A stretch of 64,000 nt of DNA. Origin: Trypanosoma brucei (Eukaryota). Below are positions 12,227 through 18,969 of the stretch, piece by piece. The DNA lies in the NCBI GenBank assembly GCA_000002445.1, contig CH464491.1, forward strand, positions 2,688,001 through 2,752,000. The letters are read 5' to 3'. How positions within the stretch are numbered: the stretch's first letter is position 1; every line of letters starts with the position of its first letter. Under the pieces are notes generated by a model. It ran no database searches. It saw nothing but the letters and a program-made list of their open reading frames with translations, and was not told where the DNA came from. The position numbers and the translations under genes were made by a program.

Positions 12227-14167
12227 ATGTTCTTCTGGGGTTCGTACAACTTTTTTGAACCCCGACAGGCGGACCCCCCTAATCGGCCGCCGCTGCGTTA
12301 CCCCGTATATGTGCCCCCGTCGCTTTCCATGATGGCTGACGCTGGGATTGCAGAGCCCGAGAAAATTTTAAAAACTGAACAGGACGACATCCAAAGCACA
12401 TTGCAACATGTGGACAACCATCGTATCGTCGTGAAGCTGATTGGTTGTGGCCAAAAACATTTGGTGGGGCTTATGGGCCTGGCCCCCAAATCAAGCATGG
12501 GTTCTGCTTTGCCGCGTAGGGAAGGTGCCGTCACATCTGATATCGGTTCGAATGTGACATATGCACTGTATGGCATGGGAAGCAATCACAGTGGCCAGTT
12601 GGGCCATCGCCTGCCAACGTACAGCACCACATTGGTAAAACTCCAATTTGAGGAGTTGTTGCCACCAGGAGTCACCGTTTCTAGCATTGCCTGTGGTGAT
12701 AAATACACAGTTGTTTCTACTTCCGATGGGCTTGCGTTCGCCGCCGGAGATAACAGCTTTAGTCAACTTGGTACAGTGGGAAAAGGGCTTGGTTTTGCTC
12801 CTGTTCGTGGTATACATAACATTAAGCGAGTCTTCGCCGGTGGTAACGCAACCTTCGCCCTAGATGGTAACGGCCAACTCTTCTCATGGGGTGAAGCACA
12901 GTACGGACACCTGTGCCATGGAGACAACGGCCAGCGGTTGGATGTAAAAACACTGAAAACTGTGAACACCAATGTTTCCGTGCCTACAAGGATCGAATGG
13001 TTCGTCCGCCGTCACGTTACTATTGTGGATGTGTCAGTATCCCGAAGTCACGTGGTGTGCCGTAGCGGCGATGAAGTGTACACGTGTGGTGATGGTACAT
13101 ATGGAAAGCTGTGCTCAGGGAGTTTCGAATCGTCGTACTTACCTGTGCGTGTCAAATTTCCAGAGCGTACCCACCCTGAGCGTGTCTGTGCCATTGCTGC
13201 TGGGGATGATCATACGCTAATTCTTCGCGAATCAAGTGCCGTTGGTGCCGTTGTTTATTACTTCGGCAAAGCAAAAAACGGTGATGGGCAGTTGATCCCA
13301 GACATCATATCTTTGCCATCAAACGTTCAAAATATATTCGCTGGGCGAGGAACGTTTTCTGCGGCAACAACGAGTGATGGGCTTTTGTACGTATGGGGAA
13401 AGCAAGTGTACACTGGCTTGTCAAACGGTACTTCAGGTAAGGCTTCTCGCAGTTACCCGTGTAGCGTTGTGGCTTTAGAATCACATAACATTACCAGCGT
13501 CGCCGCAGGCGCCACGTTTGTAGTGGCGACCGGTGGTGAAAGGCGTGCCTGTGAAGGCATCGCCAACGAAGGGGAAAGATGGGATATAGTGATTCCACAC
13601 GACGATAGAACTGAGTCAGGGTATGGCGATTCCTTCAGCTCGAGATACGAAAGTGCGGTTCAGGCGTTTCTCACACAGTACCTTGGTCCATCAGTCGCTG
13701 GAGCATATATATCTGGCATTCCAGAAGCTCCGTTGGCGACCAATCCGAACGCCAACAGGTTTAAACCCATCGGTGCACACTCCCTAACCGTAGGACAAAA
13801 GGTGCGGTTGTGGATGACAGACGTGTACGCATTAGCCTCCATAACGAAAGTGTTTGGACGCAAGGAGCAATCAAATCACGTTGATATCAGCGGCAAGACC
13901 AACGAAGAAGAAAGAGATCATCAACAACACCTTCAAATAAAGAATGAAGAGGAAGAGAAGGAAAATTTAGGGCTCTCAGAGGTCAGTGGCTCGGCCGATG
14001 CACCGGGTTATCGCTTCTGTATTGAGTGGCAAAGGGATGATTGGAGAGACGAGGAAGTTACGTTGTACTCTGACGATGAAACTTTAGAGGAAACAAACCC
14101 CAACAGATGGCAGCCACTGTGGTTCCTCTACGACGAAACAGCTGGAAACTATGTCGTCGGAAAATGA
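12227..14167 (+). CDS. RCC1 (regulator of chromosome condensation) repeat protein
   Basis: Repeated beta-propeller blade motifs YGMGSNHSGQLGH, AAGDNSFSQLG, SWGEAQYGHLCHGD, TCGDGTYGKLCSG, VWGKQVYTGLSNG; alternative ATG at 12329. Confidence 0.7.
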   Translation: MFFWGSYNFFEPRQADPPNRPPLRYPVYVPPSLSMMADAGIAEPEKILKTEQDDIQSTLQHVDNHRIVVKLIGCGQKHLVGLMGLAPKSSMGSALPRREGAVTSDIGSNVTYALYGMGSNHSGQLGHRLPTYSTTLVKLQFEELLPPGVTVSSIACGDKYTVVSTSDGLAFAAGDNSFSQLGTVGKGLGFAPVRGIHNIKRVFAGGNATFALDGNGQLFSWGEAQYGHLCHGDNGQRLDVKTLKTVNTNVSVPTRIEWFVRRHVTIVDVSVSRSHVVCRSGDEVYTCGDGTYGKLCSGSFESSYLPVRVKFPERTHPERVCAIAAGDDHTLILRESSAVGAVVYYFGKAKNGDGQLIPDIISLPSNVQNIFAGRGTFSAATTSDGLLYVWGKQVYTGLSNGTSGKASRSYPCSVVALESHNITSVAAGATFVVATGGERRACEGIANEGERWDIVIPHDDRTESGYGDSFSSRYESAVQAFLTQYLGPSVAGAYISGIPEAPLATNPNANRFKPIGAHSLTVGQKVRLWMTDVYALASITKVFGRKEQSNHVDISGKTNEEERDHQQHLQIKNEEEEKENLGLSEVSGSADAPGYRFCIEWQRDDWRDEEVTLYSDDETLEETNPNRWQPLWFLYDETAGNYVVGK

Positions 14168-14556
14168 AATGGTAGGTGATACACAAAAGCTCGTTGGAAT
14201 AGAAAGCTGTGTACAACTGAATATATATTTTTTAAATCATAAAAAAGGGATGAACAAAGCCCCATCGAACAAGGTCGATGCGACACATATCATAAGGCAC
14301 ACAAAGAAGAATACGAAACAGCTATTACAGTAAACTGAGCGACAGAAGAAATTACAAAAAAATATTAAAAACTATAAAAAACCTGCGGAAAGAAGCTAAC
14401 TGACATACTTACGAAAAACCATTAAAATAATACGCAAGAACAAAAAAATAATTCAACTTCATCCCCTATCAAAAAAAAAAAAGAACACACAAACGAAAGG
14501 TAAATTAAAAATAAAACGGAAAAATAAAAAAAAAGATAGGTCGATATGACAGATGC

Positions 14557-15378
14557 GGCGTGAAGCTCTGCCACTGGTGCATCAGTAGCTCGGCATTACT
14601 GTGTTCGATGCTCTGCGCTCAGTGGACATGATGCTCCGCCGCCCATATATCCCGTTATGTATATCCTGTGTGCGCTCTAGTTCCGTTGGGACCCTGAAGA
14701 GTAAGCACACTAAACCATGCATTATACATGACCATACCCCATATATACACAATTGTAAAGCTCTTTTATGTAGTGTGCGTACCACGAAAGTAGCAGGTAC
14801 TGCACACGAAACTGGAGAGCGAGACTCTTCATTTCGACTATGGACCATATGGTTGTAGCCGTTGAATGATGACTGACAAAACATCACAGACTTTGATGAC
14901 CCCATGAACAAGAAAAATTGTCGCCCCAGACTGATTTTCACTCCCACCCCTGTATACTGACACTGGCACTTTCCTGCCGCTGTCACTGTCGCTGTTTTCG
15001 TTCATACTCTCAAATACTCTCACATTCACACACTCTTTCTCCTTCCCCTCCTTTTGACCCTCTTTGTTGTTGCCACCGTGAAGTGATTGACACCTAGGCC
15101 GATGTAAAGCCGTCGCAGATGGACGTCGATATCTTGTGAAAACAGTACTATTTTATGCCCTGACTGATCGCCGTGGCCGCCCCACTCACTACGTTTGTTG
15201 TGTAGTGTACATCCCTCTCATTTTGCTCCGTCCCCCCTCCCTCTCCTTCTGTTTCCCTTTTCTCCCCTCTTCCTTTCAGTTGGCACCGCGACAAGGTCAG
15301 CCTGAGGGCACACCTTCAGTGTGTGTACGGCCTCGGGAGGGCGTATATCCGCTCGAGTCGCAGAGCGAGGGAAATGGT
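14557..15378 (+). repeat. tandem repeat unit 1 (~822 bp), candidate snoRNA cluster repeat
   Basis: Identical ORF artefacts recur at +822 nt (14582-14986 vs 15404-15808; 14601-14858 vs 15423-15680); unit begins ggcgtgaagctctgccactggtgcatcag. Confidence 0.85.
14860..14940 (+). ncRNA. candidate C/D-box snoRNA (copy 1)
   Basis: ccgttgAATGATGActgacaaaacatcacagactttGATGACcccatgaacaagaaaaattgtcgccccagaCTGAtttt: C box AUGAUGA 14866-72, D' CUGA immediately after, C' UGAUGA, D CUGA 14931-34; ~75-80 nt spacing typical of trypanosomatid C/D snoRNAs; located in tandem repeat. Confidence 0.5.
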
Positions 15379-16193
15379 GGCGTGAAGCTCTGCCACTGGT
15401 GCATCAGTAGCTCGGCATTACTGTGTTCGATGCTCTGCGCTCAGTGGACATGATGCTCCGCCGCCCATATATCCCGTTATGTATATCCTGTGTGCGCTCT
15501 AGTTCCGTTGGGACCCTGAAGAGTAAGCACACTAAACCATGCATTATACATGACCATACCCCATATATACACAATTGTAAAGCTCTTTTATGTAGTGTGC
15601 GTACCACGAAAGTAGCAGGTACTGCACACGAAACTGGAGAGCGAGACTCTTCATTTCGACTATGGACCATATGGTTGTAACCGTTGAATGATGACTGACA
15701 AAACATCACAGACTTTGATGACCCCATGAACAAGAAAAATTGTCGCCCCAGACTGATTTTCACTCCCACCCCTGTATACTGACACTGGCACTTTCCTGCC
15801 GCTGTCACTGTCGCTGTTTTCGTTCATGCCCTCAAATACTCTCACATACTCACACATTCACACACTCTTTCTCCTTCCCCTCCTTTTGACCCTCTTTGTT
15901 GTTGCCACCGTGAAGTGATTGACACCTAGGCCGATGTAAAGCCGTCGCAGATGGACGTTGATATCTTGTGAAAACAGTACTATTTTATGCCCTGACTGAT
16001 CGCCGTGGCCGCCCCACTCACTACGTTTGTTGTGTAGTGTACATCCCTCTCATTTTGCTCCGTCCCCCCTCCCTCTCCTTCTGTTTCCCTTTCCTCCCCT
16101 CTTTCTTTAAGTTGGCACCGCGACAGTTTATTTTGAGTTTTTGCCCTTTATGGTTTATCTCTATGAAAACTGTCGAAGATTAAGGGAAATAAT
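15379..16193 (+). repeat. tandem repeat unit 2 (~815 bp), ~98% identical to unit 1 with small indels near the 3' end
   Basis: Same start sequence ggcgtgaagctctgccactgg at 15379; differences include a 10-bp insertion near 15835 and divergent 3' end. Confidence 0.85.
15682..15762 (+). ncRNA. candidate C/D-box snoRNA (copy 2, one substitution 5' of C box)
   Basis: Same sequence at +822 nt; gtaaccgttgAATGATGA... CTGA. Confidence 0.5.
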
Positions 16194-16259
16194 GGCGTGA
16201 AGCTCTGCTGCTCGTGCATCAGTAGCTCGGCGTAATTTTGTTTGATGCTCTGCGCAATG
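16194..16259 (+). repeat. partial third repeat unit (5' ~66 nt only), then divergence
   Basis: ggcgtgaagctctgctgctcgtgcatcagtagctcggcgtaattttgtttgatgctctgcgc matches unit starts with substitutions. Confidence 0.7.
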
Positions 16260-16785: not shown

Positions 16786-17700
16786 ATGACGGTGTTGTCA
16801 CGGGTGCTTCTGGGTGCAGCGGTGGGAAGTGTGAGTGCGGCATTTAACATAGCGTGGTGTGATTCATCATTGCAAAGCGGTTCTGTGCTTTCTGTAAACA
16901 GTTTACTGCCTGTGGATGAAATTATTAGAGCGGATGGAAAGAACGCCAGTCTTAAGTCTTGGGGTGTTCCGTGGGTTGAGGATTGGGACTGTCTTGAGGC
17001 GAAGGACGGAGCGGCGGGAAAAAGTTCGGGGCATAAACGCCAGCTGATTTTGATACGTCACGGGCAATACCAAAATGAGAAGAGTAGTGATGACCGGCAA
17101 CGCACTCTTACTCAACTTGGGGAGGAACAGGCGAGACTCACCGGAAGGTATTTGTGGCAGGCGTTTCAGCAGAAACGTTTGGTGAAGGAACTGGGTAGTG
17201 AACCGGCGCTTGGGGTTGATAACTTCATGGGCGGGTTGTTGCGTTTCCATGAGCCGAAAGAAATCTACGTCTCGGATATGACTCGTGCTCAGCAAACTGT
17301 CAAACTCATAACGGAAGCTTTTCCCTACCACATACGTGCGCGAGTAAAAACTGATCCCATTCTTAGGGAGCGGTATCCCTGTGACCCTCAGCCGCCGCAT
17401 AAGCACCGATCTGCAGCGCACAGCGACATGTTAGCGGTGGAGGAGGTGTTCAAAAAATATTTTCATAGACCCTTAAAGGACGAGTCGTCTGTCGAGGTTA
17501 TTGTGGGACACGCCAATGTCATTCGGTATTTGGTGTGCCGCGCACTGCAGTTGCCCCCAGAAGCGTGGCTGCGCATTTCGCTTCCCCACTGTAGCATCAC
17601 AAGTCTCGTGATTGGTGCAAACGGTCACGTCAGTTTATCTTCGCTTGGGTCGGCAGGGCACCTGCCCGTCGACATGGTCACAACTCATAACGTTCCGTAA
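16786..17700 (+). CDS. PGAM5-like histidine phosphatase (phosphoglycerate mutase family Ser/Thr phosphatase) with N-terminal membrane anchor
   Basis: ORF-track start 16723 is TTG; first ATG 16786 gives MTVLSRVLLGAAVGSVSAAF anchor; RQLILIRHGQY catalytic RHG motif; IVGHANVIRYLVCRALQLPPEAWLRISLPHCSITSLVI nearly identical in pattern to human PGAM5 [37 protein letters not shown]. Confidence 0.85.
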   Translation: MTVLSRVLLGAAVGSVSAAFNIAWCDSSLQSGSVLSVNSLLPVDEIIRADGKNASLKSWGVPWVEDWDCLEAKDGAAGKSSGHKRQLILIRHGQYQNEKSSDDRQRTLTQLGEEQARLTGRYLWQAFQQKRLVKELGSEPALGVDNFMGGLLRFHEPKEIYVSDMTRAQQTVKLITEAFPYHIRARVKTDPILRERYPCDPQPPHKHRSAAHSDMLAVEEVFKKYFHRPLKDESSVEVIVGHANVIRYLVCRALQLPPEAWLRISLPHCSITSLVIGANGHVSLSSLGSAGHLPVDMVTTHNVP

Positions 17701-18678
17701 TTTGTTTTAAAAGCGGTGAAAGGGGGAGGGGTCGCCGCGGAAATAATACTAAGGGCGGGACCTTTTCTGTTTTCCTTCTTTTTTCCTTACTTGGGTGTGC
17801 GTCAGATGAAATAAGGAAAAAAAACTGAAGGAGAAGGACGGTCAGGTCGGTGTCGTTCAGCTTTGCGCGAAGGCTTGTGCCGGCAGTTTATGTCTCTAAG
17901 ACTCAGGTGATGTGTTTTCCTGCATCTCTCACCCAAAGCACACACACACTTACGTGCGCATGGTTTTCCTCTCTTTATGTCTCTATTTGTTTGCGTCCCC
18001 TTTAGTGGTGTAAAAAGCGAGGAGATCCTTCGGCTCTCATCCTTTTAGCTTCTTTCTCCCCTTCGTTTTGTTTCTTTCTTTAATCCCTCGTTCACCTCTT
18101 TGCTTATTCAAGGTATTTTTGTGGGGGTTACCGTTTTCAGCTAAGACAGATAAGTGTATTTTCGTTAGTGTCTTTTTTTTTTTTTGCAAGCCACTGCATA
18201 GTAAGCCCTTTTGTTGTTTTTAAATCTCCCCACTCAAGGCCCTCATGAACAATCCCACCGGTGAGTGTACTCATTTAGTCTCGTGCGTGGACCTAGGAGC
18301 GCCAAGATTTCATTCACTTGAGATAGGGGTGACAGCCAGAGGCAGGAAAAAAATACAGCAACAACGAAAGTTGTGGAAGTGTGGACGTGATGAAGAAAAA
18401 TTATTTACTTCTGTTTGGAGAGGGTTCAGGAACACTCTCCATGACGTTACCATAATTAATCCATTCTCTGATCACGTTCAGTCGCTTCTTCTTTCCTCCC
18501 CCTTTCCGCGTCCCCTGTGTTAGTTACAACATTTAACGTGATGAAAAACCTTTCATGCTGTGTGACGTACTCCCTTATGAGGGCAGGCACAAGCTGCTTG
18601 CGGCCTAGTGTCATGCAATTGATTATAGACGGCATTCTGAAAAAGTAACTTACTCTCTCTCCCCTCCTTTTGTTTACC

Positions 18679-18710
18679 TCCTCTCTCTCTCTGTGTGTGT
18701 GTGTGTGTGT
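18679..18710. repeat. compound (CT)n(GT)n microsatellite
   Basis: ctcctctctctctctgtgtgtgtgtgtgtgtgt. Confidence 0.9.
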
Positions 18711-18969
18711 CTGACCTCTTTTTTTTTTCTGTTCTGAGAGTGTATCTGTTTGCCTCCACCATAACGGGTACTACACATAACAACTACTTTGACAAACAAA
18801 GTTTGATTTACCTATCTTATTTATCTTGTTTCACATGGCACTGCGCATCATTTTATCTGCATTCGAAGAATCTGTATTATGTGCTCTCTCGCTTCTACTT
18901 TTCACGCCTCTCGTTCCTGTTTCTATTTCATTCACATATTTATCTTGAAGAAAGGTGCTCGTGGACCAA

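Follow-up and report, generated by a model that had tools for sequence, protein, structure and literature searches.

Assignment of a tandem repeat array on Trypanosoma brucei chromosome 11 to the SLA1 small nucleolar RNA locus, cluster TB11Cs2

Introduction

Trypanosomatids are known to carry small nucleolar RNA (snoRNA) genes in clusters in which C/D and H/ACA-like genes are mixed, arranged in tandem and placed on the same strand as the flanking protein genes (PMC6562600; PMC3273796). In one such cluster of Trypanosoma brucei, TB11Cs2, the 92-nucleotide (nt) RNA TB11Cs2C2 is grouped with SLA1, a homologue of snR30 and the 76-nt RNA TB11Cs2C1 (PMC2978370); TB11Cs2H1 is identical to SLA1, and TB11Cs2C3 to snR30 (PMC6411936). 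Here we analyse a window of 64,000 nt from T. brucei (contig CH464491.1, assembly GCA_000002445.1, positions 2,688,001 to 2,752,000), for which an earlier reading of the letters alone, the original prediction, had proposed an unannotated snoRNA gene cluster in a tandem array at 14557-16259. All positions given below are those of the window unless another sequence is named. We find that this array is almost certainly the SLA1 locus (snoRNA cluster TB11Cs2) on chromosome 11 of a Trypanosoma brucei-group genome.

The locus is therefore already known, its RNAs having been characterised from the 1990s onwards and placed in four Rfam families (PMC2978370; PMC6411936; PMC3273796; PMC9283944). The functions of the two C/D RNAs were established by RNA interference against snoRNAs (snoRNAi) and by cross-linking with aminomethyltrimethylpsoralen (AMT) (PMC2978370). 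Under AMT and ultraviolet (UV) light TB11Cs2C1 cross-links to U1900 of the small subunit (SSU) ribosomal RNA (rRNA); it pairs near A0 in the 5′ external transcribed spacer (ETS) and takes part in SSU processing. The cross-links of TB11Cs2C2 are to srRNA-6 and srRNA-2, the release of which is blocked when this RNA is depleted (PMC2978370). SLA1 guides the formation of pseudouridine 28 in the spliced leader (SL) RNA and in addition acts as a chaperone (PMC9283944). The snoRNA precursors are trans-spliced and polyadenylated and the RNAs are highly abundant (PMC3273796; PMC6562600), the evidence for expression coming from primer extension and northern analysis (PMC2978370; PMC3091756) and from RNA-seq (PMC3273796). 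In what follows, expression, abundance, targets and phenotypes are taken from this literature; the repeat, the gene identities, strand, boxes and pockets, the gene order and the non-coding nature of the open reading frames (ORFs) come from the present analysis. Roberts et al. are said to have described the 'SLA RNA locus' as a tandem array in 1996 and 1998, and their 1998 work, cited in PMC2978370, reportedly dealt with the SLA1 loci of Leishmania tarentolae and T. cruzi, with which the array analysed here has gene order and tandem reiteration in common.

Results and Discussion

Each repeat unit carries four described RNA genes

To identify the RNAs encoded in the array, the whole window was scanned against the Rfam covariance models and the scan was repeated with lax filters. 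The array consists of two head-to-tail units, starting at 14557 and 15379, and each unit contains four full-length Rfam matches, all on the + strand, with scores that are 2-3.5 times the gathering scores and E-values of 1e-16 to 1e-35. The gene order in each unit, read along the + strand, is snR30 homologue (TBR17), SLA1, TBR7 and TBR5. The array and its matches are as follows:

14557-16259, + strand: whole tandem array, two units and a degenerate partial third copy
14614-14733 and 15436-15555, + strand: snoTBR17 (RF00294), 139.8 bits against a gathering score of 40
14757-14827, + strand: SLA1 copy 1 (TB11Cs2H1, RF01537), 82.1 bits against a gathering score of 40; single-hairpin H/ACA-like RNA with an AGA box
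15579-15649, + strand: SLA1 copy 2, identical to copy 1
14863-14937, + strand: TBR7 copy 1 (snoTBR7, RF00295), 92.0 bits against a gathering score of 45; C/D snoRNA of 75-76 nt, C box AUGAUGA at 14866, D box CUGA at 14931
15685-15759, + strand: TBR7 copy 2, identical to copy 1; C box AUGAUGA at 15688, D box CUGA at 15753; model positions 1-75 of 75 are matched in both units
15080-15169, + strand: TBR5 copy 1 (snoTBR5, RF00292), 106.6 bits against a gathering score of 44; C/D snoRNA of about 90-92 nt, C box GUGAUUG at 15083, D box CUGA at 15164
15912-16001, + strand: TBR5 copy 2, 109.1 bits; D box CUGA at 15996

The Rfam family names denote clusters 2 and 3 of T. brucei chromosome 11. We assigned TBR7 to TB11Cs2C1 and TBR5 to TB11Cs2C2 from the sizes of the Rfam matches (75 and 90 nt) and from the gene order, and these sizes agree with the published RNAs of 76 and 92 nt (PMC2978370). 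The likeness to the T. brucei SLA1 locus extends to the same four genes, their order and the tandem layout, with full-length matches of 82-140 bits. The two copies of TBR5 differ at one base (C at 15127, T at 15959), which fits a note on differences between repeats in the published description (PMC2978370). We see no difference of substance, the window having two units and a relic where another assembly has at least 11 units, and nothing contradicts the identification as SLA1 / TB11Cs2.

These matches bear directly on what had been claimed for the array. The proposal of a tandem snoRNA cluster embedded in a polycistronic unit is borne out by the four Rfam families in each unit and by flanking genes on the same strand, so that mixed C/D and H/ACA-like genes, tandem arrangement and common orientation with the protein genes, the hallmarks of trypanosomatid snoRNA clusters, are all present. 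The textbook C/D arrangement noticed in each unit corresponds to TBR7. As for the further box-like elements, each unit does hold a second C/D gene, TBR5, with its GUGAUUG box; the other two genes (SLA1 and the snR30 homologue) are of the H/ACA type, and only two of the four are thus C/D-box genes. The term 'unannotated', in the sense of new, has to be withdrawn, the locus being published and its RNAs being in Rfam. The array accordingly has little discovery value, having been known since the 1990s, entered in four Rfam families and functionally dissected. It is of use for calibration: a reading from the sequence alone recognised a trypanosomatid snoRNA cluster and rightly dismissed the ORFs within it.

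The gene order and the functional elements are conserved in a diverged homologue

We scanned metagenome contigs with an invariant 17-mer of TBR7 and filtered the resulting 120 loci by BLAST. One was a true homologue, the environmental contig Ga0172376_10159236 (1491 bp, here L091), and the rest were chance matches. L091, the source of which is presumably another kinetoplastid, likewise has a tandem structure, its unit recurring every 1368 bp (123 of 123 positions identical in the overlap), and carries TBR17, SLA1, TBR7 and TBR5 in the order found in the window, all above the gathering scores. Gene order, tandem reiteration and the C/D and AGA/ACA boxes are common to both. Pairwise alignments gave an overall identity of 62-73%, with long invariant blocks at functional elements; the spacers of the array, compared by BLAST, are not conserved.

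Among the invariant elements are the blocks GUUAUGnAUAUCCUGUGUGCGCUCUAG and AAACCAUGCAU of the snR30 region, including the m1-like and m2 blocks of TBR17, the SLA1 pocket CGAAACUGG and its AGA box, the TBR7 blocks ACAUCACAGACUUUGAUG and UGUCGCCCCAGnCUGA and a block of 40 nt in TBR5, the invariant blocks of TBR7 and TBR5 measuring 18-40 nt. The lower stem of SLA1 shows a compensatory change from U-A to C-G in L091, and the variant C box of TBR5, GUGAUUG, which has one mismatch to RUGAUGA, is kept there as UGAUUGA. The two loci differ in that the unit of L091 is longer (1368 bp) and GC-rich, its TBR7 has an insertion of 19 nt, and about 650 nt lie between its TBR7 and TBR5, a stretch holding several further C/D-like box pairs that have no counterpart in the window. 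Additional C-box/D-box pairs were observed at 577-1231 and 1327-1400 of L091, both between TBR7 and TBR5 and after TBR5 (for instance AUGAUGA at about 1338).

The SLA1 pocket and the spliced leader RNA

SLA1 folds as one hairpin with a symmetric internal loop (z = -3.75, none of 200 shuffled sequences being as good), and its AGA box, at nt 66-68, is separated by 3 nt from the end of the Rfam match, which is 71 nt long. The SL RNA sequence used for the pairing described here was taken from established knowledge. The 3′ side of the pocket, GAAACUG (nt 52-58), is a perfect complement of SL nt 21-27, and nt 12-19 of SLA1 can pair with SL nt 30-37, G-U pairs included, leaving U28-G29 unpaired. From the pocket to the AGA box the distance is 14 nt (G52 to A66). 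Judged from the sequence, the geometry of the SLA1 pocket is that predicted for a canonical H/ACA guide directing pseudouridine 28 in the SL RNA.

The C/D RNAs as rRNA-processing factors

Both C/D RNAs of the cluster are described as rRNA-processing factors and not as classical methylation guides. Because of these processing roles, and because SLA1 has the SL RNA as its target, complementarity to rRNA next to the D and D′ boxes, the absence of which the original prediction had put forward as a refutation, is a poor test for this cluster.

The snR30 homologue probably extends across the proposed unit boundary

Atzorn et al. (2004) reportedly established the m1 and m2 motifs as the signature of snR30/U17. 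In both copies of TBR17 we find an m1-like AUAUCCU (14661 and 15483) and an exact m2, AAACCAU (14712 and 15534), which in the minimum free energy fold face each other across the internal loop of the 3′-terminal hairpin, followed by an ACA; in the first copy this ACA is at 14726-14728, with 5 nt remaining to the end of the Rfam match. The opposed m1-like and m2 motifs with the adjoining ACA box are points of likeness to yeast snR30 and vertebrate U17 (SNORA73), as is the role in SSU processing reported in the literature (PMC2978370; PMC6562600). The window RNA differs from these in its m1, which is AUAUCCU and not AUAUUCCUA, in having no detectable covariance-model similarity to the Rfam snR30/SNORA73 families, and in being encoded in a tandem polycistronic cluster and not by an independent or intronic gene.

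Upstream of TBR17 lies a structured domain of about 155 nt, which follows a polypyrimidine-AG tract, runs across the junction 15378/15379 into TBR17 and folds into a long hairpin, although no H box could be confidently placed in it. The region 15280-15560 has a fold z of -3.1, and the block GUACGGCCUCG of the 5′ domain (about 15327-15337) is conserved in L091. On the strength of the structured upstream domain and the conservation of GUACGGCCUCG, we regard the snR30 homologue as a long RNA that would extend from about 15280 to about 15555. This span is consistent with the length of the snR30 homologue, which we take to be about 270 nt. The two copies in the window would then be:

14557-14733, + strand: snR30-homologue copy 1, TBR17 match at 14614-14733; 5′ domain probably absent
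15280-15555, + strand: snR30-homologue copy 2, 5′ domain at about 15280-15435 and 3′ hairpin (TBR17) at 15436-15555

Copy 2 is probably the only complete snR30 homologue in the window. Copy 1 is probably 5′-truncated, since what precedes 14557 is unrelated, A-rich sequence, and its alignment with copy 2 and with L091 shows the missing 5′ part. The unit phase chosen in the original prediction, with a boundary at 15378/15379, therefore probably cuts the longest gene of the cluster in two, which illustrates how annotation by repeat phase can split the snR30 homologue. Separately, the Rfam snoTBR17 model seems to span only the 3′ part of a longer RNA.

Anatomy of the array

Repeat searches confirmed the tandem array of about 822 bp that had been reported, with units of 822 and 815 nt in the phase originally chosen. 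They matched 14557-14856 to 15379-15678 with 100% identity over 300 nt, and 15004-15293 to 15836-16125 with 98% identity over 290 nt, so that the start-to-start distances of matching segments are 822 and 832 nt; a perfect duplication of 300 nt cannot arise by chance. A three-copy repeat family of 84 nt marks the partial third copy. Tandem Repeats Finder returned 0 rows at the array because the longest period allowed, 500 nt, is below the unit length.

In a global alignment, 7 substitutions and a single insertion or deletion (indel) of 10 nt separate 14557-15292 from 15379-16124, corresponding to about 99% identity over the first 736 nt of the unit. The unit tails (15293-15378 and 16125-16193, the last ~85 nt) are strongly diverged, and the identity of the whole units is for this reason 92% and not the ~98% given previously. 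The indel consists of the stretch ATGCCCTCAA, which is absent from unit 1 at 15004 and present in unit 2 at 15826-15835. The spacers, 42% of the length, contain six of the seven substitutions (one-sided binomial p = 0.025). The third partial copy of about 66 nt, at 16194-16259, is real, as had been claimed, but degenerate, 55 of 66 positions matching 15379-15444. On the left the array starts abruptly at 14557, after unrelated A-rich sequence; on the right it decays gradually. The parts of the array outside the RNA genes are:

14938-15079, + strand: pyrimidine-rich spacer (74% C+T), not conserved in L091; holds the 10-nt indel between the units
15170-15279, + strand: spacer ending in a 65-nt tract, 91% pyrimidine, and then AG at 15278-15279
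16112-16259, + strand: decayed edge of the array, a degenerate piece of the 5′ domain of snR30 without the GUACGGCCUCG block and the 3′ hairpin

The polypyrimidine-AG tract at the end of the second spacer resembles a trans-splice acceptor and may act as one. The decayed edge is probably a relic; it is kept in the same form in two further assemblies, described below. The sequence just upstream of the sharp left edge (14400-14556) is very A-rich, with a GC content of 27%, in contrast to the pyrimidine-rich spacers inside the array.

Alternative readings of the array

Several observations set limits to the assignment without contradicting it. The C/D genes have no notable fold (z = -0.42 for TBR7 and -0.05 for TBR5), and a C/D scan that required at least 3 contiguous terminal base pairs missed both TBR7 and TBR5, a criterion that we judged too strict. 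Unremarkable folds and misses in such scans are usual for C/D RNAs with short terminal stems. For the snR30 homologue, the Rfam snR30/SNORA73 models gave no match at E <= 10 on 15270-15565, so that its identity as snR30 rests on the motifs and on the literature (PMC2978370; PMC6411936, citing Barth et al. 2005); moreover, snoTBR17 (RF00294) is labelled 'CD-box' in Rfam, at odds with the later literature, in which it is the H/ACA snR30 homologue. Could the repeat instead be a non-functional satellite or dispersed family with box-like motifs that occur by chance? Short motifs are indeed common, CUGA being found 13 times in the region, and boxes alone are weak evidence. Set against this are the four covariance-model matches in each unit, with their very low E-values, the published functional data (PMC2978370), and L091, which keeps the four genes in order and has conserved RNA blocks but not conserved spacers. 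The satellite reading, which the original prediction had itself named as an alternative, was rejected on the Rfam matches in both units and the gene conservation in L091, and we consider it hardly credible. An equally negligible probability attaches to the proposal that the duplicated ORFs are the real genes and the RNA matches secondary. The ORFs are present and exactly duplicated: the minus strand has one of 134 amino acids (aa), at 14582-14986 and 15404-15808, and the plus strand one of 85 aa, at 14601-14858 and 15423-15680. They begin with GTG, however, and shrink to 107 and 76 aa when counted from the first ATG; no Pfam family matches them, and they overlap on opposite strands across three RNA genes. 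In tblastn searches against L091 they align at the conserved RNA blocks only, in frames -1 and -3, and the ORFs of both strands match the same nucleotide block. The protein-coding reading was thus rejected, and the ORFs are, as the original prediction had it, by-products of the RNA repeat. It is improbable, though somewhat less so than these two readings, that the decayed copy (16112-16259), the spacers (14938-15079 and 15170-15279) or the truncated copy (14557-14733) yield an undescribed stable RNA or a processing or regulatory element; the truncated copy might give a shorter snR30 isoform.

A further alternative concerns the copy number only, and leaves the assignment to the SLA1 locus as it stands. 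Over 20.9 kb the window shares 98.5% identity with L121 (FN554974.1, which we take to be T. b. gambiense chromosome 11), and over 13.2 kb it shares 99.0% with L122 (CM010682.1, GCA_003543875.1); it thus comes from a strain of the T. brucei group other than those behind these two assemblies. FN554974 is cited in the T. b. gambiense genome paper (PMC2854126). L122 comes from a chromosome-scale assembly and contains at least 11 units of 831-832 bp (L122 1-9335) with 0-2 base differences, the array continuing beyond the 10-kb flank that was compared, whereas L121 (7757-9335) has exactly two units and the same decayed edge; both of these assemblies share the last two units and the decayed edge with the window. 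Since the units of L121 and L122 are spaced 831-832, the 822-nt spacing is peculiar to the first unit of the window. The two units of the window reflect either a strain difference or the collapse of a longer array during assembly, in which case they would not represent the true structure of the strain, and we give collapse an even chance. In its favour are the at least 11 near-identical units of a related assembly, the fact that near-identical repeats of 0.8 kb are a classic target of assembly collapse, and the reported great abundance of the RNAs (PMC2978370; PMC3273796). Yet the independent assembly L121 likewise has two units and a decayed edge, the 7 substitutions and the 10-nt indel between the units of the window argue against a trivial collapse of identical copies, and genuine variation in copy number between strains is equally possible. 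The copy number thus differs at least 5-fold between assemblies, a point to consider when dosage is estimated and when knock-outs or snoRNAi are designed.

The differences between the units of L122 are mostly single-base indels, possibly long-read errors.

Proposed expression and function of the cluster

For the SLA1 / TB11Cs2 locus we propose the following course of expression. The array, which has protein genes of the same strand on either side, would lack a promoter of its own, and RNA polymerase II would transcribe it together with the rest of the polycistronic unit. The precursor would be trans-spliced and polyadenylated, with the polypyrimidine-AG tracts of the spacers as putative splice acceptors, and the snoRNAs would be trimmed out of it, protected by their core proteins. 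Of the mature RNAs, the snR30/U17 homologue, of the H/ACA type, would be needed for SSU rRNA processing. The SLA1 pocket would pair with the SL RNA on either side of U28, direct its pseudouridylation and chaperone early SL RNA biogenesis. TB11Cs2C1 (TBR7) would form base pairs both near A0, in the 5′ ETS, and in the 3′ part of the SSU rRNA, and TB11Cs2C2 (TBR5) would act in the release of srRNA-2 and srRNA-6. The tandem reiteration may provide gene dosage for snoRNAs that rank among the most abundant in the cell, in a genome without gene-specific promoters.

Flanking genes and a neighbouring snoRNA cluster

The array lies between two protein-coding genes on the same strand, which fits a polycistronic unit:

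12227-14167, + strand: upstream flanking gene, RCC1-repeat protein (Pfam RCC1, E = 3e-38)
16786-17700, + strand: downstream flanking gene, histidine-phosphatase-superfamily protein of 304 aa (Pfam His_Phos_1, E = 1.6e-17)

A protein identical to the product of 16786-17700 is annotated in two NCBI records of Trypanosoma chromosome 11, and genes for TatD and IQ-motif proteins, likewise on the + strand, are located further out from the array; searches for exact copies of the RCC1 and TatD proteins of the window returned no record. One gene downstream, the next intergenic region (18236-18641, + strand) contains a second snoRNA cluster, which is single-copy in the window. It comprises a match to the Rfam family TB11Cs3H1 at 18236-18307 (93.8 bits), a C/D candidate at about 18387-18474 with GUGAUGA and CUGA boxes and a terminal stem formed by ACGUGAU and AUCACGU, and a further C/D candidate found by eye at about 18536-18641 (GUGAUGA at 18539, CUGA at 18637). 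The two candidates are probably the published TB11Cs3C1 and TB11Cs3C2. Downstream of the TB11Cs3 cluster, and likewise intergenic, a (CT)n/(GT)n microsatellite followed by a run of T occupies 18670-18712.

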